Positions 1 through 64,000 of a stretch of DNA of 64,000 bases are shown here, in pieces. The notes under the pieces were generated by a model, which saw nothing but the letters and a program-made list of their open reading frames with translations, was not told the DNA's origin and searched no databases. Each line of letters opens with the position of its first letter. Positions within the stretch are counted from its first letter, which is position 1. The DNA comes from an uncultured Ardenticatenaceae bacterium (lineage in GTDB: Bacteria; Chloroflexota; Anaerolineae; Promineifilales; Promineifilaceae). A program made the translations under genes and the position numbers. The stretch is from NCBI GenBank assembly GCA_964581605.1, contig CAZOPF010000001.1, positions 45,786 through 109,785 on the forward strand, read 5' to 3'.

Positions 1-22
1 CATATGGCTTACCTTCGTCGGC

Positions 23-2227
23 ATGATGATCATCTGGCCGGCCTCAGTTTTGGTCCTCTCAGGATTTGGCATTATATTAGGCATGAGCCTGCCCATCCTT
101 GTTATTCTGATCACCGATAGCCTGTTACCCCCAAAAGGAATCACATTGGCGGCCGTCATAGCTACCATTGTGGGGGCGGTGACCGTGTTGATTGATCTAT
201 TCGGGCCGGCAAATCGCACACAGGTCCCTCCGGCCGTGGAAGCATTTTTGCCCGCCATGGTTATAGCCATCATCCTCATTTATGGCCTCTTTATTGCCTA
301 TAATTTTAAGAATTACAGTATGCGTGCCAAGCTGATTACGGCCACGGCCATGGTGTCCATTGTGTCTGTGGTTGCGGTCACTATCATTGTCGGTATTACT
401 ACTCGCAACGCTTTGATTGACCAGGTGGGCAATAACATGCAAAGTCTGGCTGAATCACAGGCGTTGGCGTTGGGCGAGGTATTGTCCCGCCAGATCAATA
501 TCATGGAAACCCTGGCCTTGAATCGGGCTGTGACCGATGCCGTGCAAGCCCGCAATGCGTTTTATGAGGGGCAAACGCCGCAAGAAATTGAAGCGGCGAA
601 TCTGGCATTGAGCCAACAATGGCATAATGCCGACAGCACCGACCGGCTGGTGTTAAGTATTATGAACAACTCTACTTCACAACAGTTGGTGAGCTTCCAG
701 CAAACGTTCCCTGATCATACCCTTCTTTTGCTTACCGACATAAACGGCGTTCTGGTAGCTGCTTCCCAACGGCCGGATCGTTTTGATTATAGTGAAGAAG
801 AATGGTGGCAAAATACCTATTCATCTGGTTTTGCTGCTGTGCATGTTGGCCAGCCTTATGTATCTGAGACTCGTGATGATGTGCTTGTGGATATTGCTGT
901 ACCTGTGCGTACTGTAAACAATACCGGACGTTCAAAGGTTGCGGGCGTACTGCTCACCTCATATAGTCTGGCTTCGGTAGCCGAAATTTTGCGGCAGTCT
1001 GTCTTTGGCGATTCGGGTCATTTTCATCTGCACTTTCCGAATTTCCGGCAGATGAAGTTACATGAAGGCGAAGAAGGAAAGTTGTTGGAATTTATACTTC
1101 CCGACGAAGCAAACATTGTAGATCGCTTGTGGTTCAATAACCTGCCTTTCTTAAACGACTTTTTTGAGGGCGTTCCCAGCCTGGTAAGCCAGGCGCGGGT
1201 GAATACGTTGGCTTATGAACCAAAGGTGGACAGCCTGGGGTGGCGGGTGGTTGCTGTGCAAGATGAAGCTGAGGCTTTGCAACCTGTGGAGCAACAACAG
1301 CGCACCAATATCTTGTTAGGCGTGTTTATTGTGCTGCTGGCTTCAGGGATGGCCGCACTTATTGCCCAGCTTCTTTCCCAACCCATTATCAGGCTGACGA
1401 ATACGGCCGTGCAAGTGGCTGAAGGCGACCTGTCTGCCCGTGCTGTTGTGCAAAGCAATGATGAAATTGGCACATTGGCGACCACCTTTAACCGGATGAC
1501 GGACCAACTGCAAGAATCTATTACAGGGCTGGAACAACGAGTTGGCGAACGTACCCGCGCTTTGACAGCCAGCGTAGAGGTGAGCCGCAGCCTTTCTACC
1601 GTATTAGACCCCGATCAATTGGTAGTGGAAGTGGTTGAACAGGTACGCGCAGCTTTTGGTTATTACTATGTCCAAATCTATCTGTTTGATGATCAACAAA
1701 ACCGGCTGTACATGGTGGGCGGTACTGGCGAAGCGGGGCAGGTTTTGCTGGCACGGGGTCATTCTTTAGCTGCCGGGCAAGGGCTGGTTGGCCGAGCGGC
1801 CGCCACCAATACCCCCGTCTTTATTCCTGATGTCTCTTTAGCACCTGAGTGGAAGCCAAACCCACTGCTGCCGGATACACGGGCGGAAATCACCCTGCCC
1901 ATTGCTATTGGTGAACGGGTTCTGGGTGTGCTAGACGTGCAGCATGATGTGTCTGATGGATTGGTTGAAGAAGATGTTCAGGTGTTGCAATCGGTGGCTT
2001 ATCAGGTGGCTATTGCCATCCAAAATGCCCAGTCATTTGACCAGGCGCGTAAGCAGGCAGAACGCGAAGCGATGATTAACGCAATTAACCAGAAAATCCA
2101 AAGCGCCACCTCAGTAATGGCCGTGTTACAAATTGCAGCCGAAGAATTGGGACATGTGTTCGATGAACAAAAGACCAGCGTCCAGCTTTTTAATCCGGCA
2201 CAAAAAGCAAACGGGAACGGCCGTTAA
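23..2227 (+). CDS. Membrane sensor protein: Cache-like extracytoplasmic domain, HAMP, GAF and a conserved C-terminal tail; no catalytic output domain
   Basis: 734-aa ORF from ATG 23. N-terminal TM helices are followed by a ~330-aa loop homologous to the N-terminus of the 2957-aa neighbour (EEWWQNTY vs QEAWWQAAY), then a second TM. HAMP-like PIIRLTNTAVQVAEGDLSARAVVQSNDEIGTLATTFNRMTDQL. GAF signature WKPNPLLPDTRAEITLPI..GERVLGVLDVQH. The promoter lies off-window. Confidence 0.85.
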   Translation: MMIIWPASVLVLSGFGIILGMSLPILVILITDSLLPPKGITLAAVIATIVGAVTVLIDLFGPANRTQVPPAVEAFLPAMVIAIILIYGLFIAYNFKNYSMRAKLITATAMVSIVSVVAVTIIVGITTRNALIDQVGNNMQSLAESQALALGEVLSRQINIMETLALNRAVTDAVQARNAFYEGQTPQEIEAANLALSQQWHNADSTDRLVLSIMNNSTSQQLVSFQQTFPDHTLLLLTDINGVLVAASQRPDRFDYSEEEWWQNTYSSGFAAVHVGQPYVSETRDDVLVDIAVPVRTVNNTGRSKVAGVLLTSYSLASVAEILRQSVFGDSGHFHLHFPNFRQMKLHEGEEGKLLEFILPDEANIVDRLWFNNLPFLNDFFEGVPSLVSQARVNTLAYEPKVDSLGWRVVAVQDEAEALQPVEQQQRTNILLGVFIVLLASGMAALIAQLLSQPIIRLTNTAVQVAEGDLSARAVVQSNDEIGTLATTFNRMTDQLQESITGLEQRVGERTRALTASVEVSRSLSTVLDPDQLVVEVVEQVRAAFGYYYVQIYLFDDQQNRLYMVGGTGEAGQVLLARGHSLAAGQGLVGRAAATNTPVFIPDVSLAPEWKPNPLLPDTRAEITLPIAIGERVLGVLDVQHDVSDGLVEEDVQVLQSVAYQVAIAIQNAQSFDQARKQAEREAMINAINQKIQSATSVMAVLQIAAEELGHVFDEQKTSVQLFNPAQKANGNGR

Positions 2228-2246
2228 CCGGATTTGAGGAATACTC

Positions 2247-4739
2247 ATGCGCACACGAATGAAGGCATTCTTAGCACCCCCCGTTTTTCCAGATGATGAA
2301 GACAAAAGCCGTATTGCCAGTCTGCTCAATATCATCTTGTTGGGCCTCCTTTGTTTCATGGGAGTCATCGTACTCACGACCCTCTTTACCAACCCCGCCC
2401 CTGGCTCGTTGTTGGTGAATAGTACAACACTGACAATCGCCATTTTCTTGTATTATCTGTTCCGGCGCGGCCATGTTTTTTTGGTCAGCACACTGACCAT
2501 CACTATCTTCTGGTCTGTTTTAGCTTTCCTCACCTTTTTTGGTGGCGGGCTAACATTGTCCATTGTCACCAGTTACTTTGTGATATTGGTTATGGCGGCC
2601 GCCCTGTTGGGCCAAACCGCTACAATCCTTGTTGCCGCTGCCTCTCTGGTGGTCTGGACAATAGTGGGCATTTTGCAGATAAACGGACAATTGCCCGAAT
2701 CCATAACCCCCTACAATCTGGCAACAGATATAGGCGGTACATTTGGCAGCCTGATCATCTGTGCCCTCATCCTTTACCTGACTGTTAGAAACCTGAACCA
2801 ATCCCTGGCCAATGAACGTGAGAGCAATCAGCGGCTTTATGTTTATCAATCTCAGCTTGAAGAACGTGTGCGTTCCCGCACACATATTCTGGCACTGGCG
2901 GCGGAAATTGGCCGTGATCTATCCCAGGTGCGTGATGTAGAAGATTTATTGCGTGGTGCTGCTAACAGTATTTATAAAGGATTTGGTTTATATCATGTCC
3001 AGATTTATCTGGTAGATGCTTCCGGGCAAAATCTGGTCTTGCGGGCCGGTACGGGTTCGGTAGGTCAGGAATTACGCTCGCGTGGGCACAGCCTTCCCCT
3101 GAATGCAGCCTCAACAAATGGGGCCGCGGCAATCAATCGTCAGGCTGTAATTGTGGCGGATACGGCCTTGAGCCTTACTTTCCGCCCTAATCCTTTGCTG
3201 CCAGAAACCCGTTCAGAGATGGCCGTACCGCTCATTGCCAGCGATATGGTTGTAGGTGTACTGGATTTGCAAAGCGCACAACCACATGCCTTTTCCACTG
3301 ACAACCTGGGCGCGTTTGAAATTTTGGCCGGGCAGTTAGCCATTGCTATTGAAAACGCCCGCCTGATTCGTGATACCAGCCAGGCACGGACTGAATTAGA
3401 AGCCCGGGTTCGGCAATCGGCCCGTACGGACTGGAATCAATATCTGGATGCCATTCGTCATGGGGAACGAATAGGTTTTGTATACAACGCTGGTGCATTG
3501 TCACCAATTTCAGAGTCAATAATGGAATACGGCCGTGCCCAAACTGTGCCTATTAAACTGGCGGGCGAAGAGATTGGCACGATAGCGTTGGAGGAAACAG
3601 TTGCAGAATTATCGGCGGCTGATAGAGAGATGATGAATGCTATTGCCCGTCAGGTGAGCCAACAAATTGAGAATTTGCGGCTGTTAGAAGAAGCCGAGCG
3701 CTATCGCCGTGAAGCTGAAGAAGCCGCTCATCGCCTGATTCGTGAGGGGTGGGCGGATGTGTGGCAGGCGGGAAAGGATATGGGATTTGTGTATGACCAG
3801 ACGGCCGTGCAGCCATTACCCGATATGCCCGATATGGCCGCCGATGTTGTGGTGCCGCTTGCCGTTCAAGGTGAGGTAATTGGTCAACTGGAATTGGCCG
3901 GTATTGCCGCCGATGATGCCGAGACGAAGGAATTGGTAACGGCCGTAGCTGCGCGCCTCAGTGCCCATCTGGAAAACCTGCGCCTCACGGTTCAAACAGA
4001 AGAAGCTCTTTCGGAAGCCAGGCAGCGCACGGCGGAGTTAAACATTCTCAATGAAATGGAGGTGGCGTTTGCCGCTGCCCGCGAGACCGACGAGATGCTG
4101 GCACTCATCCACACCTACGCCTCCCGCCTGATCCGTCCTACCGAAAACCTATATATTGCTCTTTATGATGAAGCTCAGGACGAGATAGTCATCTACCTGT
4201 ATTATAAACCCGGCGAGATAGTCATGTCAGACAAAGTAGAAAATATCATTCGTCGCCGCAGCGGTAATGGAGTGACGGAATATGTGATGCGTACACGCAA
4301 GCCCTTGCTGATAAATGGCGATATGACGGCCGTAGCGGCTGAAATGGGCTTTGATGCTATTGGCGCCCGTTCCCAATCCTGGATGGGCGCTCCTTTAGTT
4401 GTTGGTGATCATGTGTTGGGAGTGGTAGCTTTACAGAGTTTTAGCACCCCTCATTTATATGGTGAATACCAGTTGGAATTGCTGACAGCCATTGCCAGCG
4501 GTGCGGCTATCGCCCTGGAAAATATACATCTGCTGCAACAGGTGCAGTCGCGTGCCCGCCAGGAACAGATTTTGCGGGAAGTGACGGCACGGGTCTACAC
4601 GGCCGTTGATGCCGAATCCATTCTGCGCACGGCCGCGCAGGAATTGAACCTCCACCTGGGGCTGGAAACCTTTATCTACCTGGAAGAACAAACCGAACCT
4701 GATATCGTCGCTGCCAATGGTGGTAATGGACACCACTAG
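2247..4739 (+). CDS. Multi-TM, multi-GAF sensor protein without an output domain
   Basis: 830-aa ORF with GAGGAA about 6 nt upstream of ATG 2247. Hydrophobic N-terminal ~190 aa with several TM helices. GAF (RPNPLLPETRSEMAVPLIASDMVVGVLDLQS). A REGW-type module (LIREGWADVW..GFVYDQ..VVVPLAVQGEVIGQLEL). A second GAF type (SWMGAPLVVGDHVLGVVALQSF). Tail ILREVTARVYTAVDAESILRTAAQEL. Confidence 0.85.
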   Translation: MRTRMKAFLAPPVFPDDEDKSRIASLLNIILLGLLCFMGVIVLTTLFTNPAPGSLLVNSTTLTIAIFLYYLFRRGHVFLVSTLTITIFWSVLAFLTFFGGGLTLSIVTSYFVILVMAAALLGQTATILVAAASLVVWTIVGILQINGQLPESITPYNLATDIGGTFGSLIICALILYLTVRNLNQSLANERESNQRLYVYQSQLEERVRSRTHILALAAEIGRDLSQVRDVEDLLRGAANSIYKGFGLYHVQIYLVDASGQNLVLRAGTGSVGQELRSRGHSLPLNAASTNGAAAINRQAVIVADTALSLTFRPNPLLPETRSEMAVPLIASDMVVGVLDLQSAQPHAFSTDNLGAFEILAGQLAIAIENARLIRDTSQARTELEARVRQSARTDWNQYLDAIRHGERIGFVYNAGALSPISESIMEYGRAQTVPIKLAGEEIGTIALEETVAELSAADREMMNAIARQVSQQIENLRLLEEAERYRREAEEAAHRLIREGWADVWQAGKDMGFVYDQTAVQPLPDMPDMAADVVVPLAVQGEVIGQLELAGIAADDAETKELVTAVAARLSAHLENLRLTVQTEEALSEARQRTAELNILNEMEVAFAAARETDEMLALIHTYASRLIRPTENLYIALYDEAQDEIVIYLYYKPGEIVMSDKVENIIRRRSGNGVTEYVMRTRKPLLINGDMTAVAAEMGFDAIGARSQSWMGAPLVVGDHVLGVVALQSFSTPHLYGEYQLELLTAIASGAAIALENIHLLQQVQSRARQEQILREVTARVYTAVDAESILRTAAQELNLHLGLETFIYLEEQTEPDIVAANGGNGHH

Positions 4740-4766
4740 CCTACCCTTTTTCTCGATTGGAGAATT

Positions 4767-7700
4767 ATGATGACTGAACCAATTCAACCAGATATGTCGC
4801 AAACAATCCGTGTACGTATAGCCCGGCTTCTCGACAATCTGGCAAAACCATCCAGCACCATTACAGACCCCGCCGAGCGGCTACAGGTTCGCTTTCTGGC
4901 CACCATCACGCTGGTTATTGCTGGTTTAACGGCCGTCAACATTCCGCTGCGTCTGGTTTCAGGTAGTGCCTATGAACAACCGGTGGAATTTGTTGTTTAT
5001 CTGCTCGTAAGCCTCACATTGCTGTTGGCTTATGGGCTGAGCCGCACCGCATACTACCGCTGGTCGCCACTGGTCTCTGTGACTGCACTTACCTCCACCA
5101 TTTATGCCTCATTCTTTCTGGTAGACCCTCCTAGCCAAAGCGCCTTTCTTTTCCTAGTGGTCATTGTGTTATTTGCCAGCGCCATTCTTTCTAGCCGAGA
5201 CACCTTTTTATATGCGGCAGTCAACATTCTCTTTTTGCTCATAGGGCCTTTACTCATTCCCAGCCTGGAATACTCTTTTTTAGGTCAGGCCATTGGTTTG
5301 CTCATCATTTGCACCACGCTCATTACTGTGGCAAACCAGCATCGCGATCGTGTGGCAGAAGTGCAGCGGCAAGAATTGCGAGAAGCCAACCAACAATTAC
5401 AAAACTTCAGCCAGATTCTGGAAGCACGTGTGCAAGAGCGTACCAACGACCTGGCGCTGGCTTCAGAAGTGGGGCGGGCGATCTCGCAAATTCGAGACCT
5501 GGATGAATTGTTGCAGCAGGCTGTTAACTTGATTCGGGAACGGTTTGACCTGTATTACACCCAGGTTTACCTGATGGATGAAGCCGACCAGCGGTTGATG
5601 CTGCGTGCCGGTACGGGCATGGCCGGGCAAACGCTCCTGGCGCAGGGGCACAGTTTGCCGGTGGACGAACATTCCATCAACGGCCGTGCTGCCGCCTATC
5701 GCCAGCCAGTTATCGTGCCCGATACCGGAACCAGCGACTTCTTCCGCCCCAACCCAATTTTGCCGGCCACCCGCTCGGAAATGGCCGTGCCGTTGCTGGT
5801 GCAAGATCGGGTGGTGGGGGTGATTGACTTGCAAAGCAGCCAGCCCCACGCCCTGACCAATGAGAATCTGCCCGCTTTTGCCGCTCTGGCCGGGCAGTTA
5901 GCCATAGCTATTGCCAATGCTGACTTGCTCAACGAGATGCAAGTGGCTACAGGTTTCTTAGATTCGGTCATTGAAAATATCCCTTTGATGCTCTTTGTCA
6001 AAGAGGCGACTGATTTGCGTATGGTACGTTGGAATCGTGCCAGCGAAACCCTCAGTGGCTTTCCCCGAGAATTTGTTCTGGGCAAAACAGACAGAGACAT
6101 TGTGCCGGCTGATGAAGCAGAATTTTACATGAGTAAAGACCGGGAAGTGTTGAATAGTGGCCAGTCGTTGGTCATACCAGAAGAGGAGTTTCAGTCAGCC
6201 AGCCGTGGCTTGCGCATTCTGCGCACCACCAAAACGCCTATTTTTGATGTTTACGGCCGTCCTAAATACCTGCTAGGCATCTCTGAAGATGTGACGGAAC
6301 GCAAACAGATTGAAGAGCAGTTAGCAGAACGGTTAAAACAGCTCAACTTACTCAACGAAATTGGCCGCAGAGCTGAAGAATCAAACAACGTGCCGGAATT
6401 TATGACCTGGATTACCTGGCGTGTACCTCAGGCTATGGGCCACCCAGAGGCGTGTATTGCGGCGGTTACAATGGGGACAGAGTTGTTTGGAGATAGGCGA
6501 GCGGTGGAGATGCCCCGGCATATGGTAGAAGACCTGACGGTGCGTGGCGAAATGGTGGGGCGTATTCATATCGCTTACATTGAAAGCACCTTGAATTTCC
6601 GTGATGAAGATAGCGCCATTATTGGTGGGGTGGGGCGGCGCGTGAGTAGCTTTGTGGAAAACCAACAATTGCTGGCAAAGCTGCAAAGGCAGGCTGAAAA
6701 TTTGCAAAAAGTGGCCGAAATCGGTACGGCCGTTGCCGCCAGCCGCAACCCATATCAATTGATGCAAGATGTGGCCGAAAAGACACGCGCCGCTTTTGAT
6801 CTTTACCAGACGGCCGTATTTCTGTTAGAGGAAAACCAACTGATATTAACCGGCGCGGCCGGTAATCTGGGTGTGGAAGCCAGCAGCCAAAGCCCACGCA
6901 TTTCAGCCAAATCACCCAAGTCATTGGTGGCGCGGGTGGCCCGCACGGGCCTGGGTATTCTGGTGAATGATGTAACCACCGAACCGGACTTTTTGGCCCA
7001 TCCATTGTTGCCGGATACCAAATCTGAAATCGTAGTGCCGTTGCTGGTGGGCCGCCAGGTGTTAGGTGTGCTGGATATGCAGTCCAGCCAGCAAGATGCC
7101 TTTAACATAGACGACCTTAACATTTTCACCACCCTGGCTTCCCAGGTGGCTATTTCGTTGCAAAATGCCCGGCAGTATGAGCAAACTCAAATGGCGTTGG
7201 ATGAACTCAGTTCATTGCAGCGTGTCATCACGGGCGAAAGTTGGGAATTGTTCTTAAAAGGCCGTCAGCGTGGAGTAAAAGGGTTTATGGTCAACCGCCA
7301 AAGCGCGCGCCCCATTGTGCGCCAGACGGAGGATGAGGAGACGGCCGTGCCAGAATCTGCTGATGTAGCGCCACAACCCGTCTCACTTGCCGCGTTGGCG
7401 GATGCTCAGGCATATGCGACCCCCATACAGGTGCGCGGGATGACCATTGGCAAACTGGGGGTGCGTGTGGCGGACAACACACCCATTATGCCTGAAACGC
7501 AGGCATTACTGGCTGCCATCTCCCAGCAAGTAGCCGGGGCCCTGGAACGTGCCCGCCTGTTTGAAGAAACTGAACTGGCCCGTGCCCAAACAGAGCAACT
7601 CTTTGCTGGCAGCGAGCGTGTGGTGCGGGCCACCACCTTAGACGAAGTTTTGCAGGCACTCATTTCCTCTACACCATTGCAACAAATGGATCGTGTCAAT

Positions 7701-8321
7701 TTGATGTTTTTTGACCAACCCTGGAATGAGCAGATGCCGAATACGATGACGGTGACGGCCGTGTGGGAGAGGGAAGGCCAGAAATCATTGGCCCCGGTGG
7801 GCACCGTATACAAACTGGCCGATACCCCGTTTATGGCCCAAATCCATGCTGGCTACCCCACCATTATCCGCGATATAACAACTGATGAACGGGTAGATGC
7901 AGCCACCAGAAATGTCTTAACCCGGCTGAAAACAGTGGGGATGGGCATTTTCCCGCTCGTGGTTGGCCGTGATTGGCTGGGGGTGGCCAGTTGCCAGTCT
8001 CATGAGCCATTGGAACTGACCGATGCCGCTATTCGCCAGGTTAGCAGCCTGGTGGATCAGGCGGCTACGGTGGCCCAAACACAACGGTTGTTTGAGGCGG
8101 CCCAGGCTCGTGCCCAACAGGAACAGGTGCTGCGGCGCGTGTCGGAACGGGTATACACGGCCGTAGATGCCGAATCGGTGCTGCGCACGGCCGTGCAAGA
8201 AGTGGGCCGTGTGTTGGGGCTGGAAGCGTTTGTCTATCTCAATGACCGGGCAACGGCCGTGCCTGAAGCCGGCCCACTGCCCGAAAAAGCAGCCAACGGT
8301 GCGGCGGTCGGTGGCCTCTGA
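4767..8321 (+). CDS. Multi-TM GAF-PAS-GAF sensor protein without an output domain
   Basis: 1184-aa ORF with GGAGA upstream of ATG 4767. N-terminal TM block. GAF (RPNPILPATRSEMAVPL). PAS (FLDSVIENIPLMLFVKEATDLRMVRWNRA...GISEDVTERKQ). Further GAF-like modules (AHPLLPDTKSEIVVPL). REGW-type module. Tail VLRRVSERVYTAVDAESVLRTAVQEV. Confidence 0.85.
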   Translation: MMTEPIQPDMSQTIRVRIARLLDNLAKPSSTITDPAERLQVRFLATITLVIAGLTAVNIPLRLVSGSAYEQPVEFVVYLLVSLTLLLAYGLSRTAYYRWSPLVSVTALTSTIYASFFLVDPPSQSAFLFLVVIVLFASAILSSRDTFLYAAVNILFLLIGPLLIPSLEYSFLGQAIGLLIICTTLITVANQHRDRVAEVQRQELREANQQLQNFSQILEARVQERTNDLALASEVGRAISQIRDLDELLQQAVNLIRERFDLYYTQVYLMDEADQRLMLRAGTGMAGQTLLAQGHSLPVDEHSINGRAAAYRQPVIVPDTGTSDFFRPNPILPATRSEMAVPLLVQDRVVGVIDLQSSQPHALTNENLPAFAALAGQLAIAIANADLLNEMQVATGFLDSVIENIPLMLFVKEATDLRMVRWNRASETLSGFPREFVLGKTDRDIVPADEAEFYMSKDREVLNSGQSLVIPEEEFQSASRGLRILRTTKTPIFDVYGRPKYLLGISEDVTERKQIEEQLAERLKQLNLLNEIGRRAEESNNVPEFMTWITWRVPQAMGHPEACIAAVTMGTELFGDRRAVEMPRHMVEDLTVRGEMVGRIHIAYIESTLNFRDEDSAIIGGVGRRVSSFVENQQLLAKLQRQAENLQKVAEIGTAVAASRNPYQLMQDVAEKTRAAFDLYQTAVFLLEENQLILTGAAGNLGVEASSQSPRISAKSPKSLVARVARTGLGILVNDVTTEPDFLAHPLLPDTKSEIVVPLLVGRQVLGVLDMQSSQQDAFNIDDLNIFTTLASQVAISLQNARQYEQTQMALDELSSLQRVITGESWELFLKGRQRGVKGFMVNRQSARPIVRQTEDEETAVPESADVAPQPVSLAALADAQAYATPIQVRGMTIGKLGVRVADNTPIMPETQALLAAISQQVAGALERARLFEETELARAQTEQLFAGSERVVRATTLDEVLQALISSTPLQQMDRVNLMFFDQPWNEQMPNTMTVTAVWEREGQKSLAPVGTVYKLADTPFMAQIHAGYPTIIRDITTDERVDAATRNVLTRLKTVGMGIFPLVVGRDWLGVASCQSHEPLELTDAAIRQVSSLVDQAATVAQTQRLFEAAQARAQQEQVLRRVSERVYTAVDAESVLRTAVQEVGRVLGLEAFVYLNDRATAVPEAGPLPEKAANGAAVGGL

Positions 8322-45403: not shown

Positions 45404-45432
45404 ATTATAGCACGGCCGTTTGCATCCCGCAA
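45404..45432 (-). promoter_or_regulatory. Sigma70-type promoter for the nusA operon
   Basis: The minus strand reads TTGCGG (45432-45427), a 17-nt spacer, then TATAAT (45409-45404). Confidence 0.45.
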
Positions 45433-49451: not shown

Positions 49452-49457
49452 CCCCCC

Positions 49458-53322: not shown

Positions 53323-53349
53323 TGGCAATTCTCCTGAAAATTAAATTAA

Positions 53350-57325: not shown

Positions 57326-58080
57326 TAATGATGAACTTCGTCTACGATACGGCCGTCGGCAATCACAATGGTGCGGGTAACGCGGCTGGCCAGTTCGTTG
57401 TCATGTGTAACCATGAGGATGGTTTTGCCTTCGCCGATGAGCCGTTGGAATAGTTTGAAGATGGAATCGGCCGTTTTGGAGTCCAGGTTGCCGGTGGGTT
57501 CGTCGGCAGCCAGAATGGGCGGGTCGTTGGCCAGGGCGCGAGCGATGGCCACGCGCTGTTGCTGGCCGCCGGAGACTTCGGAGGGCAGTTTGTAGGCCTG
57601 GTCGGCCATGTCTACCAGTTCCAGCAGGTGCAGGGCGCGTTCGCTGCGCTCTTTCTGGCTGTACATGTTGCAGAAGTCCATGGGCAGCATGATGTTTTCG
57701 ATGCAGGTGAGCATGGGTAGTAGCTGGAAGAATTGGAAGATGACGCCCACAGTACGGCCGCGCCATTCGGCCATGGGGCCTTCTTTGAGGGTGTGTACGG
57801 CCGTGCCGTTGATGTTCACTTGCCCGGCGGTGGGGCGGTCTATGCCGGTGATCATGTTGATGAGCGTGGTCTTGCCGCTGCCCGATTTGCCCACGACGGC
57901 CACAAATTCGCCCCGGTCAATTTGCAGGTCTACACCATTCAGGGCAATGAATTCACCGACGGGGGTGATGAACGCTTTCATCACCTGCTGCAAATCTATG
58001 AGGTGGGTGGGGGTAGGGGAATCGCCGTTGGCGGCACGGCCGTTGGCTTTGTTATCGCTGCGAAAAAACTGCTTTATCAT
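57325..58080 (-). CDS. ABC transporter ATP-binding protein (MacB/LolD-type)
   Basis: The start is taken at ATG 58080 (MIKQFF). Walker [10 protein letters not shown], signature [15 protein letters not shown], Walker [14 protein letters not shown]-loop MVTHD. The longer track ORF would overlap a consensus + strand promoter. Confidence 0.93.
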
Positions 58081-58163: not shown

Positions 58164-58192
58164 TTGACAAGCCCTAAGTGTACCGTTATAAT
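58164..58192 (+). promoter_or_regulatory. Consensus sigma70-type promoter (TTGACA-17 nt-TATAAT), probably the distal rpsA promoter
   Basis: Both hexamers are perfect, at 58164-58169 and 58187-58192. This would give a ~240-nt AT-rich leader before rpsA ATG 58441. Confidence 0.5.
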
Positions 58193-58440: not shown

Positions 58441-59814
58441 ATGATGGAAGATACCAATTTTGAAGAATTTTTGGAAACGCACAATTATGAACTGCCTGAG
58501 GTTGGCGACATCCGCAAAGGGATTATTGTGGCAGTGACGCAGCAAGGGGTCATTGTGGATTTGGGCCTGAAGCGGGATGGCATTGTGCCCAGCACAGACT
58601 TGGCTAAACTGGAACCGGAAGAGCGAGCCGAACTGCGCGTCAATGATGAGATTTCTGTGTATGTGATGAACACGGAAGCGCCAGACAGCTTGCAGGTATC
58701 TATCCATCTGGCAAAGATGAACCAGGATTGGATTGAAGCCGAAGAGTTGATGAAAACGGGCGATATTTTTGAAGGGGAAGTGATTGGCTATAACAAAGGG
58801 GGGGCCATTGTGCCTTACGGCCGTCTGCGTGGCTTTATTCCCGCTTCCCATCTGGCTGTGCTCACGCGCGGCTTGAATGACCGGCAGCGCCAGCAAAAAT
58901 TAGCCAAACTGCGCGGCACAAAAATTCCGTTGAAGGTGATTGAAGTAGATCGCCAGCGCCGCCGCCTGGTCTTTTCGCAACGTGACGCGCAAAAAGAGTG
59001 GGACGAATTGCAAAAAGGGGAACTGCTGGATCGGCTGCAAGAAGGGGATACGCTGCACGGCCGTGTGAGCGGACTGCGTGACTTTGGCATCTTTGTAGAT
59101 TTGGGCGGCGTGGATGGGCTGGTGCATATTTCTGAACTGGCCTGGCACCGCATTGACCATCCCCGCGAAGTGGTAAAAGTGGGCGATGAAATTGATGTCT
59201 ACGTGATGAAAATTGACCGCGACGACCAGCGTATCAGCCTCAGCCGCAAGAAGATGTTGCCCAATCCCTGGGATACGGTGGAACAACGATACCACATCAA
59301 CCAGTTGGTGGAAGGTTGCATTACGCGCATTGTAGATTATGGCGCGTTTGCCGAAATTGAACCGGGCGTGGAAGGGCTTTTGCATCTGTCACAGCTTTCA
59401 CGCGGCCAGGTGGAAAATGCCGGGGAAGTGGTCAAGGAAGGCGAAGTTCACCTGTTGCGAGTGGTCAGCATTGAGAAAGACCGGCAGCGTATTGGCCTGA
59501 GCCTGCGCCAGGTGAGCGCGAACGAGCAGATTGAGTGGATGTCTCGCAAGCAGGCAGAAGCGGACGCAAAAGCGGATGCCAAAGCTGCCAGCAAGCAGGA
59601 ATCCGGCAAACCGGCCGCTAAAGTGAAAACGGCCGTACCCGCGGAAACCGCCGTAGAAGAAGCTGAAGAGGTTGAGGAAATAGCCGGGGCAATGACCGAC
59701 AGCGTGGAAATGGCAGATGCGGTAATAGAAGCGGAAGAAACTGTGATCGAGATCATGGATATGGAAGATTTTGCTCCTGCCATTGAAGAAGCAGAAGAAG
59801 TTGAAGAGAGCTAA
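58441..59814 (+). CDS. rpsA: 30S ribosomal protein S1 (four S1 domains plus an acidic C-terminal tail)
   Basis: 457 aa. Repeated S1-domain motifs (GDIRKGIIVAV, GDIFEGEVIGYNKGGAIV, GDTLHGRVSGLRDFGIFVDL, NQLVEGCITRIVDYGAFAEI). Tail rich in E and A. Confidence 0.9.
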   Translation: MMEDTNFEEFLETHNYELPEVGDIRKGIIVAVTQQGVIVDLGLKRDGIVPSTDLAKLEPEERAELRVNDEISVYVMNTEAPDSLQVSIHLAKMNQDWIEAEELMKTGDIFEGEVIGYNKGGAIVPYGRLRGFIPASHLAVLTRGLNDRQRQQKLAKLRGTKIPLKVIEVDRQRRRLVFSQRDAQKEWDELQKGELLDRLQEGDTLHGRVSGLRDFGIFVDLGGVDGLVHISELAWHRIDHPREVVKVGDEIDVYVMKIDRDDQRISLSRKKMLPNPWDTVEQRYHINQLVEGCITRIVDYGAFAEIEPGVEGLLHLSQLSRGQVENAGEVVKEGEVHLLRVVSIEKDRQRIGLSLRQVSANEQIEWMSRKQAEADAKADAKAASKQESGKPAAKVKTAVPAETAVEEAEEVEEIAGAMTDSVEMADAVIEAEETVIEIMDMEDFAPAIEEAEEVEES

Positions 59815-60219: not shown

Positions 60220-61689
60220 TTGGAATTACAACACGATTGGCTTCTCAGCCGGGTGCAGGCAGCACCTACCCAAATGGCCTTGTGGATGGGCGAGCGGCAG
60301 TGGAGCTATGCCGAACTAAACCACCTGGTGAACGGTTGTTGTGCCCGGCTGGCGGAGATGGGAGTACGGCCGTATGACTTTGTGGGCGTCCTCATGCCCA
60401 ATTCACTGCTCTATGTCTGCCTGGTTCACGCCCTGGCGCGGCTGGGTGCGGTGCTGGTGCCCCTGAATACGCGCCTGACGCCCGCTGAATGGCAGTGGCA
60501 GGCGGAGCATGTGGGCTGCAAACTGGTGTTGTGTGCGCCAGAGATAGTGGCGACGGAGCAATCCCCCATTCGCCTGGAATTGATGGATGAGACATGGTTG
60601 GTTGGGGAAACGGCCGTGCCTTCGGCCGTCAGTTTTTCGCTGGATCGGATACAGGCGGTGGTGTTTACATCGGGCACATCAGGACGGCCGAAAGGGGCCA
60701 TGCTCACCTTTGCTAACCATTTTTACAGCGCCCTGGCTTCGGCGTATGGCCTGGGGGTGCAGCCGGATGATCTCTGGTTAAGCTGCCTGCCGTTGTACCA
60801 TGTGGGTGGGCTGGCCGTTATCTGGCGCAGTTGTCTGGCGGGCACGGCCGTAGACCTGCACCCCAAATTTGACCTGACGGCCGTAAACGACAGCCTGAAC
60901 CACAAACCCATCACGCTCATCTCTCTGGTGCCTACCATGCTGGCGCGGTTGCTGGAAAGCCGGGCAAGCTGGCCGGAGACGCTGCGATTGGCGCTCATTG
61001 GCGGGGCCGCGCTGCCGCCAGATTTGCTGGCCGCGGCGTTGCGGGTGGGTGTGCCCATTGCCACCACGTATGGGCTAACGGAAGCGGCGTCGCAGGTGGC
61101 GACGATGCGCCCGGAAGATGTCGAACGCAAACCAGGCAGTGTGGGACGGCCGTTGCTTTTTACCACCGTGCGTATAATGGACGACGACGGCCGTGAGTGC
61201 CCCCCTGGCGAAATTGGCGAAATTGTGGTCAGCGGCCCCACCGTGATGGCCGGATATTGGGATGAAGCGACATTAGCTGACAATACATTTCACACCGGGG
61301 ACATGGGGTATGTGGATGGGGATGGTGATTTGTGGGTGGTGCAGCGGCGCAGCGACCTGATTGTGACGGGTGGTGAGAATGTATATCCGGCGGAAGTGGA
61401 GGCGGTGCTGAAAAGCCATCCAGCGGTGACAGCCGTTTGTGTAGTGGGGCTGCCAGATGCGGAATGGGGACAGGTGGTCGTGGCGGCAGTGGTGGTGGGG
61501 AAGGCGGGTACGGCCGTGACCGCCCAGGAACTCACCCACTTTTGCCGGGAACGTCTGGCCGGTTACAAAACCCCCCGCCAGATTTACTTTGTAGACGACC
61601 TGCCCTTAACTGCCTCCGGTAAAATTGCCCGGCCAGAAGTAGCGCAGATAGTGGGGATACGGAATGCCGGAGTATCGTCCTCGTTGTAA
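60220..61689 (+). CDS. menE: AMP-dependent acyl-CoA synthetase/ligase, possibly o-succinylbenzoate-CoA ligase
   Basis: 489 aa with an apparent TTG start at 60220. AMP-binding motif VVFTSGTSGRPKGAM, YGLTEA, GDMGYVDGDGDLWVVQRRSDLI, and a C-terminal SGKIAR Lys. The size and LIGGAALPP pattern fit MenE, but substrate assignment is uncertain. Confidence 0.6.
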   Translation: MELQHDWLLSRVQAAPTQMALWMGERQWSYAELNHLVNGCCARLAEMGVRPYDFVGVLMPNSLLYVCLVHALARLGAVLVPLNTRLTPAEWQWQAEHVGCKLVLCAPEIVATEQSPIRLELMDETWLVGETAVPSAVSFSLDRIQAVVFTSGTSGRPKGAMLTFANHFYSALASAYGLGVQPDDLWLSCLPLYHVGGLAVIWRSCLAGTAVDLHPKFDLTAVNDSLNHKPITLISLVPTMLARLLESRASWPETLRLALIGGAALPPDLLAAALRVGVPIATTYGLTEAASQVATMRPEDVERKPGSVGRPLLFTTVRIMDDDGRECPPGEIGEIVVSGPTVMAGYWDEATLADNTFHTGDMGYVDGDGDLWVVQRRSDLIVTGGENVYPAEVEAVLKSHPAVTAVCVVGLPDAEWGQVVVAAVVVGKAGTAVTAQELTHFCRERLAGYKTPRQIYFVDDLPLTASGKIARPEVAQIVGIRNAGVSSSL

Positions 61690-61735: not shown

Positions 61736-63529
61736 ATGAGACAAACTGTGATTGTTCTATTGGCTTGCGGGTTGATTTTTCTGCTGGTCGCTTGTGGCGA
61801 TCTGGCCAGTGAAATTGTAGGCGCTACCGCTACACCAGAGAGACCAACAGATACCCCACCAACTGCCACGCTCCCCCCTACGACTGAACCAACAGCTACC
61901 CAATCTGTTTCTACCGAGGTACAACAAGGCATTGCGGCCGTAGACAGTGTGGATGTGCAAATGATGGAATCGTTCCCCGTGCAGGTAAACGCCCGGGCAC
62001 AGGGTAATTTGCCAGATGGCTGCACCCTTATTGAGCAGAGTCGTGTTGAACAACAAGAAAACACCTTTGTTGTCACCATTTCCACCATTCGGCCGGCCGA
62101 TATGCTTTGCACCCAGGCGGTTGTGCCCTTTGAGGAGATCGTGTCGCTGGATGTGGAAGGGCTGCCTGCGGGCACGTATACGGTAGATGTGAATGGAGTC
62201 ACCACCACCTTTACTTTGGATGTAGACAATGTGCAGCCAACCGAACCGGCCGCCACGCCTACCGTTGCAGACTCAGCCAGTGCCATCATCAACGGCCGTG
62301 TCTGGCATGATCTCTGCACTGTTCTCACCGATGAAACTGGTGGGCAAATTGCTCTTTCCACCGGTTGTGTGCCGCTCAATGAAGGTACAGCCTTTGAGGC
62401 AAACGGCCGTCTGGAAGATGGCGAACCAGGCATAAGCGACATCACCGTGAGCCTGGGCAGTGGCCCATGCCCGGCCGACGGTCTGGCCACCACACTAACC
62501 GATGCCGATGGGGATTATCTGTTTGAGGGATTGACGGCCGGTGATTACTGCGTCTCCATTGACACGGAAGCGGCCGAAAATGCGGCCATGCTGCCTGGCG
62601 TCTGGACGTATCCGGGGGTTAATGTGACGGCCGTTACCCTGGCCGATGGTGAAATCAAAACCGATGTCAACTTTGGTTGGGACTTTGCTCAACTGCCTGA
62701 ACCAGACGTAGACCTGGCCAATTGCACCAACAGTATGGCTTTCCTGGCCGATCTGAGCATTCCAGACGACACGGTCATTGCCCCCGGCGAAACTTTTGAA
62801 AAGGGCTGGCGGCTGCGCAACAGCGGTACCTGCCCCTGGACAACCGGCTATGCCCTCACCTTTGCTGGTGGCGAGCAAATGGGCGCACCGGAAACGGCCC
62901 CTCTGCCAAACCCGGTTGCCCCTGGCGAAGAAGTCAGCGTTTTTATAGATTTTGTAGCCCCGGAAACGGTAGGCACATACCGCAGTGATTGGTTAATGAC
63001 AACGGCCGCCGGGCAGATTTTTGGTGTGGATGGTTTTGCCGACCAGGTGATCTGGACGCAAATAGTGGTTGGTGTGCCGGAGCCAACGGCCGAACCCAAT
63101 TCGGCCGCCATTGGTGGTGTGGTGTGGGAAGATATCTGCTTTATCCGCGCCGATGGCTCCCCCTCGCCCGGTTGCGTGGAAATTGAAGGTACCGGCCAAT
63201 TTCGGGGAGATGGCTCACTCATCAACGAGCCACGCCTGGCGGGTGTAACGGTGATATTGGCTGAAGGCGCTTGCCCGGATACCGGAGCGCCATTGGCTGA
63301 TGCTATTTTACAAACGGCCGTAACCGACGCCGATGGCCTTTACCGGTTTACGAACCTGGACGAAGGTCTGTACTGCGTCGCCATTGATGCCCTCAGCCCG
63401 GCCAATGTAAATCTGTTTATTCCAGGTAATTGGACCTGGCCGGCACCCGGCACTGGCGGCCAGGGCGTTAACCTGGCTGCTGGCGAGCAGCGCCTGGAAG
63501 TAGATTTTGGTTGGGATTATCAGGAGTAA
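61736..63529 (+). CDS. Secreted lipoprotein with SdrD-B/Cna-B-like repeats and an NBR1-like Ig-fold domain
   Basis: 597 aa. Signal plus lipobox LLVAC. Three TDADG.Y.F..L..G.YCV repeats. A central segment, PGETFEKGWRLRNSGTCPW..GYALTF..G, resembles NBR1-FW-type domains. The function is unknown. Confidence 0.6.
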   Translation: MRQTVIVLLACGLIFLLVACGDLASEIVGATATPERPTDTPPTATLPPTTEPTATQSVSTEVQQGIAAVDSVDVQMMESFPVQVNARAQGNLPDGCTLIEQSRVEQQENTFVVTISTIRPADMLCTQAVVPFEEIVSLDVEGLPAGTYTVDVNGVTTTFTLDVDNVQPTEPAATPTVADSASAIINGRVWHDLCTVLTDETGGQIALSTGCVPLNEGTAFEANGRLEDGEPGISDITVSLGSGPCPADGLATTLTDADGDYLFEGLTAGDYCVSIDTEAAENAAMLPGVWTYPGVNVTAVTLADGEIKTDVNFGWDFAQLPEPDVDLANCTNSMAFLADLSIPDDTVIAPGETFEKGWRLRNSGTCPWTTGYALTFAGGEQMGAPETAPLPNPVAPGEEVSVFIDFVAPETVGTYRSDWLMTTAAGQIFGVDGFADQVIWTQIVVGVPEPTAEPNSAAIGGVVWEDICFIRADGSPSPGCVEIEGTGQFRGDGSLINEPRLAGVTVILAEGACPDTGAPLADAILQTAVTDADGLYRFTNLDEGLYCVAIDALSPANVNLFIPGNWTWPAPGTGGQGVNLAAGEQRLEVDFGWDYQE

Positions 63530-63532
63530 CAC

Positions 63533-64000
63533 ATGGCCTCTCCCCCCTTCATCGTTGCTGCCCAAACAGAAGCCAAATTACCTGGCCACTCTGAGAATCA
63601 GGATTCAATTCACACCAGCCTCTACACAGCCGGGCAAACAGCCTGTGGCCTCTTTATGGTGGCTGATGGGGTAGGCGGCCATAAGGATGGCAATCTGGCA
63701 AGCCAGACGGCCGTTGCCACCATCCACCATGCCATGCAGCCCCTGTGGGAACAAATTCCGGCCGTTCCTGCCCAGGCCGCCCAATTCTTGCAATCCCATC
63801 TCTATCAGGCCATTGTGGCGGCCAACGAAAAAATCTTTGCCCAGGCCAAAGAACAAAATGTGCGCATGGCCAGTACCCTCACCTGTGCGCTGGTGTGCGG
63901 CACATTGGCTGTCATTGCCAACATTGGCGACAGCCGAACTTACCTCTACCGCAATCAGCAGCTAGAGCAAATTACAGTTGATCACTCGGTGGTGGATTGG
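63533..64000 (+). CDS. PP2C-family Ser/Thr protein phosphatase (3' end truncated by the window)
   Basis: I translated this manually from ATG 63533, which has AGGAG 7 nt upstream. It is open to the window end and is absent from the ORF track. Motifs SENQDS, FMVADGVGGH, IANIGDSRTYLY and TVDHS. Confidence 0.85.
   Translation, partial: MASPPFIVAAQTEAKLPGHSENQDSIHTSLYTAGQTACGLFMVADGVGGHKDGNLASQTAVATIHHAMQPLWEQIPAVPAQAAQFLQSHLYQAIVAANEKIFAQAKEQNVRMASTLTCALVCGTLAVIANIGDSRTYLYRNQQLEQITVDHSVVDW

Follow-up and report, generated by a model that had tools for sequence, protein, structure and literature searches.

HIP1 (GCGATCGC), the highly iterated palindrome (HIP) of Cyanobacteria, has been known for three decades, and biased repair, chromosome structure, and DNA uptake still compete as accounts of its origin and function. 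Here, a stretch of 64,000 nucleotides from an uncultured Ardenticatenaceae bacterium (GenBank assembly GCA_964581605.1, contig CAZOPF010000001.1, positions 45,786 to 109,785 of the forward strand; the whole stretch is called the window below) is described, in which a different palindromic octamer, ACGGCCGT, is iterated. All cyanobacterial genomes that contain HIP or an alternate HIP also code for a methyltransferase by which it can be modified (PMC4390886). The alternate cyanobacterial HIPs include GGCGCC of Calothrix PCC 7103, rCCGGy of Oscillatoria PCC 10802, GCsGC of Cyanothece PCC 7822, GGGATCCC, and TCGATCGA (Elhai 2015). A chromosome-organising role was argued for HIP1 by Xu et al. from its conservation and long-range periodicity (PMC5861425). 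In two preprints, HIP1 is reported to raise transformation efficiency in a methylation-dependent way, and its abundance to correlate with DNA-uptake genes (bioRxiv 10.1101/2024.09.10.611283, 10.64898/2026.06.24.733823).

HIP1 and ACGGCCGT are both 8-bp GC-rich palindromes with a 6-bp restriction-site-type core, both occur at about 1 to 2 copies per kb with an excess of the order of 100-fold, and both lie in all frames, on both strands and also in non-coding DNA, without conserved flanks and with variants at positions 1 and 8. The sites of both are conserved beyond amino-acid constraint, and each motif is a trait of a whole clade with exceptions inside. ACGGCCGT shows every phenomenological HIP property that was tested (Elhai 2015, Xu et al. 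2018). A first-pass annotation, made from the letters of the window, had read the octamer as HIP-like, and this reading is borne out by the excess of about 100-fold, the presence in all frames and strands, the lack of flanks, the outer-position variants, the site conservation, and the restriction to one lineage. That ACGGCCGT is a genuine motif of the HIP type, driven at the level of the DNA, is almost certain.

It is not HIP1 in the strict sense, however. The host belongs to the Chloroflexota, order Promineifilales, the outer bases are A/T and not G/C, contrary to Elhai's G-methyl-C ratchet, and the centre is without GATC and hence without a Dam-type partner. Furthermore, phages and mobile elements are richer in ACGGCCGT than the chromosome, and its cognate methyltransferase is only hypothetical. 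In the alternate HIPs, another GC-rich palindrome likewise replaces HIP1 at comparable density and in a lineage-specific way, and the modifying methyltransferase is encoded in the genome. They are, however, mostly 5- or 6-mers of sporadic single cyanobacterial strains, whereas ACGGCCGT is a strict octamer in six lineages, with the bare hexamer at random level, and is common to at least 11 sampled lineages (the window and ten relatives with 73–90% identical initiation factor 2, IF-2). In full-text literature searches, no paper was found in which ACGGCCGT or CGGCCG is connected with a highly iterated palindrome, or in which HIPs are connected with Chloroflexota. The chances are about even that it represents an independent second origin of HIP outside the cyanobacteria, i.e., an 8-bp-recognising system that saturates a family-level Chloroflexota clade and its phages and is unexplained by the G-methyl-C model.

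Abundance and Spacing of the Octamer

An exact search found 108 copies of ACGGCCGT in the window, which corresponds to 1.69 copies per kb, or one per 593 bases. Dinucleotide-preserving shuffles (n = 100) had a mean of 0.91 copies and a maximum of 3, and Markov models of orders 0, 1, 2, and 3 gave expectations of 1.3, 1.1, 2.5, and 4.8 copies. The expectations of orders 5 and 6 were 51 and 85, but they are high because these models contain the 6- and 7-mers of the motif itself, and they are uninformative on chance. The runner-up among palindromic octamers in the window, GCGGCCGC, has 12 copies, the HIP1 sequence GCGATCGC none, and CGATCG three. The core hexamer CGGCCG was counted 235 times versus about 30 expected. 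An over-representation of ACGGCCGT of about 100-fold in the window is confirmed, and the huge excess, with probably more than 100 copies, that was estimated in the first-pass annotation agrees with the 108 found against about 1 expected. Its regional counts were exact for 1–8,300 (17 copies) and 30,100–33,100 (9 copies), and nearly so for 38,000–45,000, where about 14 copies were claimed and 13 found. The copies placed at 1403, 2217, and 3801 are right, while according to the exact search the one given as 3949–3956 lies at 3939–3946. The intergenic copy that it reported is real and is the sole one, but it lies at 45412–45419 and not at 45411–45418.

When synonymous codons were shuffled with all proteins kept, 11.5 copies were expected (maximum 21) against 107 observed, and a shuffle of codon order gave 2.4. 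The ratio of observed to expected copies is thus about 9 even under the protein-preserving shuffle, and the copies are found in unrelated gene families and in three frames; a ratio near 1, or enrichment confined to one frame of one family, had been named beforehand as grounds to abandon the HIP-like reading. The octamer could in principle be a by-product of codon or amino-acid bias, a dispersed repeat such as repetitive extragenic palindromes (REP) or miniature inverted-repeat transposable elements (MITE), or an assembly or sequencing artefact, but this can be given practically no credence. The three commonest codons of the motif frames, GCC, GGC, and ACG, are fairly frequent in the genome. 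Nevertheless, codon or peptide bias is ruled out by the two codon shuffles, and the same opinion in the first-pass annotation is also upheld by the presence of the octamer in all frames, on both strands, and in non-coding DNA. A larger or dispersed repeat is ruled out by uninformative flanks and by the position of 107 of the 108 copies within ordinary genes. An assembly artefact is ruled out by independently assembled identical contigs: in three independent assemblies (two Joint Genome Institute metagenomes and one Sequence Read Archive run), contigs 99.97–100% identical carry the same sites.

Each of the ten bases on either side of the octamer carries at most 0.16 bit, and no 12-mer containing ACGGCCGT exceeds 4 copies in the window. 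The octamer itself is the unit and not part of a longer repeat. It shares with Chi sites and with REP/MITE elements the character of an over-represented short word scattered over the chromosome, but REP/MITE elements are intergenic with a long conserved sequence, whereas ACGGCCGT is 99% intragenic without a conserved flank and does not belong to them.

The gaps between copies are Poisson-like (coefficient of variation 1.0; Kolmogorov–Smirnov test versus exponential, p = 0.36). The index of dispersion of counts in 2-kb bins is 1.05, and no regular spacing is seen at the scale of the window. The longest octamer-free stretches are 13314–17124 (3.8 kb), 25526–28086 (2.6 kb), 28095–30305 (2.2 kb), and 33015–35448 (2.4 kb). 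They fall in the giant GAF-repeat gene, in the PAS/GAF histidine kinase, and in the ABC-transporter/DUF420 region, with the overall spacing still compatible with Poisson.

One-base variants of the octamer at the outer positions (1 and 8) are 2 to 10 times over the composition expectation, while those at positions 2 to 7 are at or under it, apart from C2>T. About 5 copies would be expected of the variant ACCGCCGT, which is made up of the commonest Thr and Ala codons, but 0 to 2 are present. The sole internal excess is that of the C2>T variants ATGGCCGT and ACGGCCAT, with 8 copies versus 4.0 and 19 versus 4.3 expected, respectively. One-base variants of HIP1 cluster at the outer positions likewise (Elhai, PMC4390886).

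Other palindromes of the window are also skewed relative to composition: CCWGG has 344 copies versus 160 expected, GATC 164 versus 246, and ACGT 117 versus about 246 (the last by hand calculation from base composition). These skews, together with that of CGATCG, may reflect other modification or restriction pressures.

Coding Frames and Effect on Proteins

In the window, 39 open reading frames (ORFs) covering 96% of it were called, and the nusA–infB block was corrected against gene calls on identical public contigs. Inside about 35 ORFs of both coding strands lie 107 of the 108 copies, distributed over all three frames: 59 are read as ACG-GCC-GTn (Thr-Ala-Val), 33 as nAC-GGC-CGT (Asn/Asp/His/Tyr-Gly-Arg), and 15 as A-CGG-CCG-T (Arg-Pro). 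The occurrence in three codon phases and on both strands had been seen in the first-pass annotation already. The genes that bear the octamer are unrelated to each other and include GAF/PAS sensor kinases, nusA, infB, rbfA, truB, ribF, ABC transporters, an acyl-CoA ligase, ribosomal protein S1, and TIR and PD-(D/E)XK proteins. All copies, taken from the exact search with frames from the ORF calls, are listed below with coordinates, strand (given as "." for every row), frame in one-letter code, and ORF with its coding strand.

1403..1410,., T-A-V frame, ORF 23-2227(+)
2217..2224,., [NDHY]-G-R frame, ORF 23-2227(+)
3529..3536,., [NDHY]-G-R frame, ORF 2247-4739(+)
3801..3808,., T-A-V frame, ORF 2247-4739(+)
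3939..3946,., T-A-V frame, ORF 2247-4739(+)
4326..4333,., T-A-V frame, ORF 2247-4739(+)
4599..4606,., T-A-V frame, ORF 2247-4739(+)
4929..4936,., T-A-V frame, ORF 4767-8321(+)
5680..5687,., [NDHY]-G-R frame, ORF 4767-8321(+)
6253..6260,., [NDHY]-G-R frame, ORF 4767-8321(+)
6726..6733,., T-A-V frame, ORF 4767-8321(+)
6810..6817,., T-A-V frame, ORF 4767-8321(+)
7341..7348,., T-A-V frame, ORF 4767-8321(+)
7755..7762,., T-A-V frame, ORF 4767-8321(+)
8157..8164,., T-A-V frame, ORF 4767-8321(+)
8187..8194,., T-A-V frame, ORF 4767-8321(+)
8253..8260,., T-A-V frame, ORF 4767-8321(+)
9946..9953,., T-A-V frame, ORF 8389-17262(+)
10024..10031,., T-A-V frame, ORF 8389-17262(+)
10745..10752,., [NDHY]-G-R frame, ORF 8389-17262(+)
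10926..10933,., R-P frame, ORF 8389-17262(+)
12507..12514,., R-P frame, ORF 8389-17262(+)
13261..13268,., T-A-V frame, ORF 8389-17262(+)
13306..13313,., T-A-V frame, ORF 8389-17262(+)
17125..17132,., T-A-V frame, ORF 8389-17262(+)
17583..17590,., [NDHY]-G-R frame, ORF 17189-23830(+)
18357..18364,., [NDHY]-G-R frame, ORF 17189-23830(+)
18738..18745,., [NDHY]-G-R frame, ORF 17189-23830(+)
18923..18930,., T-A-V frame, ORF 17189-23830(+)
20203..20210,., R-P frame, ORF 17189-23830(+)
20370..20377,., [NDHY]-G-R frame, ORF 17189-23830(+)
20862..20869,., [NDHY]-G-R frame, ORF 17189-23830(+)
21097..21104,., R-P frame, ORF 17189-23830(+)
21598..21605,., R-P frame, ORF 17189-23830(+)
21846..21853,., [NDHY]-G-R frame, ORF 17189-23830(+)
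22913..22920,., T-A-V frame, ORF 17189-23830(+)
23024..23031,., T-A-V frame, ORF 17189-23830(+)
24666..24673,., T-A-V frame, ORF 24327-25610(+)
25145..25152,., R-P frame, ORF 24327-25610(+)
25518..25525,., T-A-V frame, ORF 24327-25610(+)
28087..28094,., T-A-V frame, ORF 25597-29544(+)
30306..30313,., R-P frame, ORF 30097-31284(-)
30479..30486,., T-A-V frame, ORF 30097-31284(-)
30683..30690,., T-A-V frame, ORF 30097-31284(-)
30754..30761,., [NDHY]-G-R frame, ORF 30097-31284(-)
31432..31439,., T-A-V frame, ORF 31368-32300(-)
31827..31834,., [NDHY]-G-R frame, ORF 31368-32300(-)
31938..31945,., [NDHY]-G-R frame, ORF 31368-32300(-)
32628..32635,., [NDHY]-G-R frame, ORF 32334-33269(-)
33007..33014,., T-A-V frame, ORF 32334-33269(-)
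35449..35456,., T-A-V frame, ORF 34917-35711(-)
36791..36798,., [NDHY]-G-R frame, ORF 36086-37741(-)
38232..38239,., R-P frame, ORF 37870-38796(-)
38639..38646,., T-A-V frame, ORF 37870-38796(-)
39025..39032,., T-A-V frame, ORF 38829-39761(-)
39088..39095,., T-A-V frame, ORF 38829-39761(-)
39115..39122,., T-A-V frame, ORF 38829-39761(-)
39428..39435,., R-P frame, ORF 38829-39761(-)
40363..40370,., T-A-V frame, ORF 39771-40772(-)
40785..40792,., R-P frame, ORF 40783-41157(-)
41382..41389,., [NDHY]-G-R frame, ORF 41205-42998(-)
42060..42067,., [NDHY]-G-R frame, ORF 41205-42998(-)
42769..42776,., T-A-V frame, ORF 41205-42998(-)
43657..43664,., T-A-V frame, ORF 43380-45314(-)
44383..44390,., T-A-V frame, ORF 43380-45314(-)
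45412..45419,., intergenic, nusA upstream region
45619..45626,., R-P frame, ORF 45551-46285(+)
45987..45994,., [NDHY]-G-R frame, ORF 45551-46285(+)
46936..46943,., T-A-V frame, ORF 46258-46968(+)
47366..47373,., [NDHY]-G-R frame, ORF 47032-47610(+)
47858..47865,., T-A-V frame, ORF 47546-48622(+)
48883..48890,., T-A-V frame, ORF 48666-49463(-)
48893..48900,., R-P frame, ORF 48666-49463(-)
49614..49621,., T-A-V frame, ORF 49458-50822(+)
50019..50026,., T-A-V frame, ORF 49458-50822(+)
50588..50595,., R-P frame, ORF 49458-50822(+)
50926..50933,., [NDHY]-G-R frame, ORF 50859-51878(+)
51082..51089,., [NDHY]-G-R frame, ORF 50859-51878(+)
51466..51473,., [NDHY]-G-R frame, ORF 50859-51878(+)
52346..52353,., T-A-V frame, ORF 51904-53328(-)
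52367..52374,., T-A-V frame, ORF 51904-53328(-)
53234..53241,., T-A-V frame, ORF 51904-53328(-)
53588..53595,., T-A-V frame, ORF 53410-54789(-)
53837..53844,., T-A-V frame, ORF 53410-54789(-)
53900..53907,., T-A-V frame, ORF 53410-54789(-)
54680..54687,., T-A-V frame, ORF 53410-54789(-)
55516..55523,., [NDHY]-G-R frame, ORF 54847-57243(-)
56159..56166,., T-A-V frame, ORF 54847-57243(-)
56644..56651,., [NDHY]-G-R frame, ORF 54847-57243(-)
56764..56771,., [NDHY]-G-R frame, ORF 54847-57243(-)
57349..57356,., [NDHY]-G-R frame, ORF 57325-58170(-)
57797..57804,., T-A-V frame, ORF 57325-58170(-)
58036..58043,., [NDHY]-G-R frame, ORF 57325-58170(-)
58817..58824,., [NDHY]-G-R frame, ORF 58441-59814(+)
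59057..59064,., [NDHY]-G-R frame, ORF 58441-59814(+)
59629..59636,., T-A-V frame, ORF 58441-59814(+)
60366..60373,., R-P frame, ORF 60220-61689(+)
60610..60617,., T-A-V frame, ORF 60220-61689(+)
60844..60851,., T-A-V frame, ORF 60220-61689(+)
60877..60884,., T-A-V frame, ORF 60220-61689(+)
61146..61153,., R-P frame, ORF 60220-61689(+)
61187..61194,., [NDHY]-G-R frame, ORF 60220-61689(+)
61510..61517,., T-A-V frame, ORF 60220-61689(+)
62292..62299,., [NDHY]-G-R frame, ORF 61736-63529(+)
62403..62410,., [NDHY]-G-R frame, ORF 61736-63529(+)
62627..62634,., T-A-V frame, ORF 61736-63529(+)
63314..63321,., T-A-V frame, ORF 61736-63529(+)
63707..63714,., T-A-V frame, ORF 63533-64000(+)

The tripeptide Thr-Ala-Val is spelled with ACGGCCGT at 59 of its 64 occurrences in the window, where background codon use predicts 12%. 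The same holds for 33 of the 37 Asn/Asp/His/Tyr-Gly-Arg tripeptides (4.5% predicted) and for 15 of the 18 compatible Arg-Pro contexts. About 90% of the places where synonymous spelling permits the octamer are filled by it. The log-odds of the motif spelling versus background codon use are 4.4 to 5.2, and as a rough inference this value per site can be taken as the scaled strength of a directional bias.

The tripeptides themselves are also in excess. Thr-Ala-Val occurs 64 times in the window versus about 11 predicted (hand calculation from amino-acid composition), which is about 6-fold, and 226 times versus 35 expected in a clade pool of 245 kb, whereas two motif-less relatives have 7 versus 4.8 expected. 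Since the excess is present in the clade and not in the motif-less relatives, the DNA motif drives amino-acid replacements, and the octamer has pushed proteins towards Thr-Ala-Val, Asn/Asp/His/Tyr-Gly-Arg, and Arg-Pro. The motif touches 1.6% of the codons of the window. In the 245 kb of pooled clade DNA, its density is 1.75 per kb in coding and 1.47 per kb in non-coding sequence. ACGGCCGT is made and kept at the DNA level wherever the sequence tolerates it.

Octamer in Related Genomes

The IF-2 of the window (41205–42998, minus strand) assigns it to the order Promineifilales of the Chloroflexota, and the nusA–infB neighbourhoods of relatives were compared at falling identity to this protein. 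All ten relatives with IF-2 73–90% identical carry the octamer at 1.2 to 2.3 copies per kb, among them a Ca. Leptofilum genome (6.36 Mb) and metagenome-assembled genomes of Ardenticatenaceae and Promineifilaceae. Ca. Promineofilum glycogenicum (IF-2 71% identical, G+C content of 66%) has only 4 copies in 20 kb (0.2 per kb), and another relative with 70% identical IF-2 has 0 per kb. Motif-bearing genomes are GCA_016860925.1, GCA_013112725.1, GCA_014584575.1, GCA_024223125.1, GCA_012329075.1, GCA_020634565.1, GCA_016713825.1, and the Ca. Leptofilum contig of ERZ25072999, besides the genome of the window; taken as motif-less are Ca. Promineofilum glycogenicum (JADJHJ01), further Promineofilum genomes, and the metagenome-assembled genome with JAICPS010000003. 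The motif is genome-wide and limited to one lineage, a family-level clade of Chloroflexota (Ardenticatenia, Promineifilales) with its phages and mobile elements. A G+C-rich chromosomal locus with 3.1 octamers per kb (L136) was considered as evidence of a second phylum, but this was rejected for loci of its type, as the glycyl-tRNA synthetase is 89–90% identical to that of Ardenticatenaceae/Anaerolineales and the order is the same. In the Ca. Promineofilum glycogenicum locus (L001), CGGCCG still leads the palindromic hexamers (75 in 20 kb), and its flanks are unbiased. The octamer GCCGCGGC has 16 copies there, with the same excess in other high-G+C genomes of the set, and this is probably an effect of Ala-Ala codons.

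Among CGGCCG sites, 60 to 91% have an outer A (T on the 3' side), and only 1 to 20% an outer G. Two kinds of loci can be recognized. In the octamer-dominant loci L086, L089, L092, L093, L112, and L113, outer A/T bases are found at 78 to 91% of the CGGCCG sites and the bare hexamer is at random level (e.g., 6 in 17.8 kb of L089). In the hexamer-rich loci (the window, L084, L088, and L091), the outer A is present in about 60%, and the bare hexamer is about 5-fold enriched, often with G in the flank. This split points to an underlying system whose specificity is not the same in all lineages.

Codon alignments of nusA, infB, rbfA, nrnA, truB, and ribF from eight motif-bearing genomes contain 32 aligned motif positions. 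About ten of them are common to five to nine genomes and lie on conserved residues, although these genomes are only 67–82% nucleotide-identical to the window in the aligned genes. Another 17 occur in a single lineage, and many of these fall where the protein is variable, e.g., in the C-terminal part of NusA. At positions with equal amino acids in the window and the partner genome, the octamer was nucleotide-identical in all 49 comparisons, and control octamers were so in 20 to 40%; a comparison of sites between genomes had been proposed in the first-pass annotation, and it speaks for conservation. The alignments show that the sites are maintained over a long term with continuing gain, and selection and recurrent drive are not separated by them.

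Direct selection on each site, through binding of a chromosome-organising or nucleoid protein, is a rather improbable explanation. Conservation beyond the amino-acid level is evidence of the same kind as that used for HIP1 (PMC5861425), and the roughly ten positions shared at such low nucleotide identity point in the same direction. However, equal conservation is expected if the motif keeps regenerating wherever Thr-Ala-Val is fixed. Also, the spacing in 64 kb cannot be told from random, half of the aligned positions occur in one lineage only, and DNA of phages and conjugative elements is richer in the octamer than the chromosome.

Octamer in Phages and Mobile DNA

When IMG/VR was scanned for three closely spaced octamers, more than 15 viral or mobile contigs with 1.7 to 4.7 octamers per kb were found. 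A tailed phage (L103/L239/L263; IMGVR_UViG_3300048592_001391) has 3.5 to 4.0 copies per kb and encodes major head protein, portal, and large terminase. L095/L242 (IMGVR_UViG_3300033417_000002) is plasmid-like or conjugative; L095 encodes ParA, a transglycosylase, and an FtsK/VirD4-like protein. Further motif-rich phage- or plasmid-like contigs are L257/L267/L235/L251 (IMGVR_UViG_3300033072_001034), L094, L110, L234, L253, L262, and L264. The density in these phage- and plasmid-like contigs is about 2.5 to 4.7 per kb, i.e., about twice that of the chromosome. A family scan of 150 ORFs from the mobile loci recognized terminases, portals, an integrase, and antirepressors. In the pooled mobile contigs, coding sequence has 3.0 and non-coding sequence 4.4 octamers per kb, and Thr-Ala-Val is 10-fold over-represented. 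A PLSDB search for a related annotated plasmid gave distant matches only, with less than 35% identity.

Transposase and toxin-antitoxin genes within motif-bearing chromosomes have, on the contrary, 3 copies in 8.8 kb versus about 1.9 per kb around them. These motif-poor genes are located as follows:

L093:895-4948, transposase/toxin-antitoxin genes
L089:130-1392, transposase/toxin-antitoxin genes
L091:13912-14514, transposase/toxin-antitoxin genes
L092:462-2192, transposase/toxin-antitoxin genes
L113:19741-20860, transposase/toxin-antitoxin genes

Their motif poverty is likely due to recent arrival. As phages are rich and transposases poor, the motif accumulates in DNA with a long history of residence or replication in these hosts. 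Chromosomal, phage, and plasmid-like DNA of one clade is under a strong and directional force that is sequence-specific, works at the DNA level, and depletes all one-base neighbours in favour of the octamer. An active EagI-type restriction target was rejected as an interpretation, since avoidance would be expected in the host and its phages and CGGCCG is instead enriched in the window and in the phage contigs, where it has 4.5 to 6.7 copies per kb.

Another role to which these densities are relevant is a self-mark against a host nuclease, in the form of a Chi-like site working in either orientation or of a methylated identity tag. This is quite improbable. It would account for phage- and plasmid-like contigs with 3 to 4.4 copies per kb, about twice the chromosome, and for motif-poor insertion-sequence DNA, probably a recent arrival; phages normally avoid restriction targets, and since the octamer behaves in the opposite way, it is not one. 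Known Chi sites, however, are asymmetric, strand-skewed, and only few-fold enriched, and they do not rewrite proteins, whereas the palindromic ACGGCCGT allows no strand skew, and no known Chi site comes near its excess of about 100-fold and its saturation of about 90%. It cannot be counted among Chi sites.

A DNA-uptake or recombination-enhancing signal, spread by uptake drive like the DNA uptake sequence (DUS) of Neisseria or the uptake signal sequence (USS) of Haemophilus, is likewise unlikely. Known uptake sequences resemble ACGGCCGT in density (about one per kb in DUS/USS, about 1 to 2 per kb here), in enrichment of the order of 100-fold, in distortion of the encoded peptides, and in being shared by a clade, as would be expected of a mate-recognition signal; DUS and USS accumulate by molecular drive. 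An uptake role was also recently proposed for HIP1 itself in the two preprints mentioned above (bioRxiv 10.1101/2024.09.10.611283, 10.64898/2026.06.24.733823). DUS and USS are, however, asymmetric and often form inverted terminator pairs, while ACGGCCGT is a perfect palindrome with a restriction-site-like core, with only 1 of 108 copies intergenic and no terminator pairing, and does not fall into that class. Tailed phages at twice the chromosomal density are not readily predicted by transformation drive. Furthermore, these uncultured filaments are not known to be competent, and the window has no competence gene.

In a metagenome scan for three close octamers (120 loci), many of the loci were a non-coding satellite of the GTACACGGCCGTGTAC type, which was excluded as a separate phenomenon. 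The GTACACGGCCGTGTAC-like satellite consists of degenerate tandem units with 10 to 18 octamers per kb and strongly conserved flanks, and its contigs have long open reading frames on both strands in several frames. It was seen on L183, L160, L182, L157, L147, L226, and about 30 other short contigs from the sample series Ga0056108, Ga0056133-135, Ga0209259, and Ga0209459.

Possible Mechanism and Significance

Methylation combined with biased repair is proposed tentatively as the mechanism behind the octamer, with confidence a little under even. The bias would be exerted by a dimeric protein reading the palindrome, presumably an enzyme of restriction-modification type because of the perfect dyad symmetry and the EagI-type core. 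The likeliest agent would be an orphan DNA methyltransferase that recognises either the core CGGCCG or all eight bases, which is favoured because of the analogy with every HIP-bearing cyanobacterium. Its methyl mark may steer mismatch repair or gene conversion towards the site-carrying strand. One-base neighbours would be converted into the motif and existing sites protected, which would be a molecular ratchet as proposed by Elhai for HIP1. The excess of the C2>T variants is a hint in this direction, as deamination of 5-methylcytosine at mCGGCCG would give it. A comparable process is known from Dcm/Vsr very-short-patch repair at CCWGG in E. coli, where a methyltransferase and a repair nuclease shift the abundance of a short palindrome and its neighbours. 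That skew is well under two-fold and concerns T:G deamination products only, whereas ACGGCCGT is about 100-fold enriched and its transversion neighbours are drained too.

Several observations weigh against this mechanism. No DNA methyltransferase is encoded in the 64-kb window, no motif-linked one was found in about 0.6 Mb of related DNA, and a search for cytosine-5 methyltransferase motifs in the fetched loci (about 2.7 Mb) gave no matches. The outer A/T bases conflict with Elhai's rule of a G 5' of the methylated C, which leaves the flanks unexplained. All kinds of neighbours are depleted, transversions included, and simple very-short-patch repair of T:G is insufficient for this. The random spacing also disagrees with a repair-saturation model, which predicts interference between neighbouring sites. 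The counts behind the C2>T excess are small, and transitions outnumber transversions anyway. Finally, that phages exceed the chromosome in density is explained by selection for protection or recombination no less well than by a passive ratchet.

Two methyltransferases were considered as candidates and rejected. The THUMP-like methyltransferase at 30097–31284 looks like an RNA-type enzyme. The N4-cytosine methyltransferase of a motif-rich phage (L257:9015-9839) is most likely specific for CCWGG or CCSGG and unrelated to the octamer. It matches Pfam PF01555, a very large family, and its closest solved structures are N4-cytosine methyltransferases; chromosomal homologues adjoin an MvaI/BcnI-type restriction enzyme in motif-less genomes. 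The phage itself carries a complete MvaI/BcnI-type restriction-modification pair of N4-cytosine methyltransferase and endonuclease (L257:8314-9839).

With alternate HIPs known so far as single-strain cyanobacterial exceptions, ACGGCCGT offers an independent replicate in a distant phylum. HIP1 is near-universal in one phylum and gives little comparative contrast, which is one reason why the debate persists. The Promineifilaceae, on the other hand, hold close relatives with the motif (Ca. Leptofilum) and without it (Ca. Promineofilum glycogenicum), and gene presence and absence across that family could reveal methyltransferase, repair, or uptake genes travelling with the motif. If the reading of a second HIP origin is true, such phylogenetic profiling could reveal the machinery and thereby make the 30-year-old question of HIP1 function directly testable. 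The motif is also an example of a DNA-level process that can rewrite proteins, with Thr-Ala-Val over-represented 6- to 10-fold. In practice, it could serve for contig binning and for assignment of phages and plasmids to Promineifilales hosts in metagenomes from wastewater and other environments.

Other Features of the Window

Eight consecutive sensory genes lie on the same strand at 23–29544, six of them with GAF, PAS, HAMP, or dCache domains. Two are giant: the gene at 8389–17262 encodes 2,957 aa with about 9 GAF domains, and the one at 17189–23830 encodes 2,213 aa with 6 PAS and 3 GAF domains. The run also holds a SpoIIAA-like gene followed by a histidine kinase, and it is ended by a single-domain response regulator (29690–30073). 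A tRNA and Rfam search of the window gave no features.

Adjoining the DUF420 gene, an EAD7-TIR protein and a PD-(D/E)XK nuclease are encoded at 31368–33269. A related genome (90%) has at the same place an EAD7-NACHT-FGE-sulfatase protein (L084:20466-21797). The stretch 31368–33269 resembles a variable locus of defence type in which effector domains have been exchanged. The gene of a solute-binding protein at 36086–37741 contains an internal tandem duplication (36099–37548), the two 703-bp halves of which are 82% identical and encode an SBP_bac_3 domain each.

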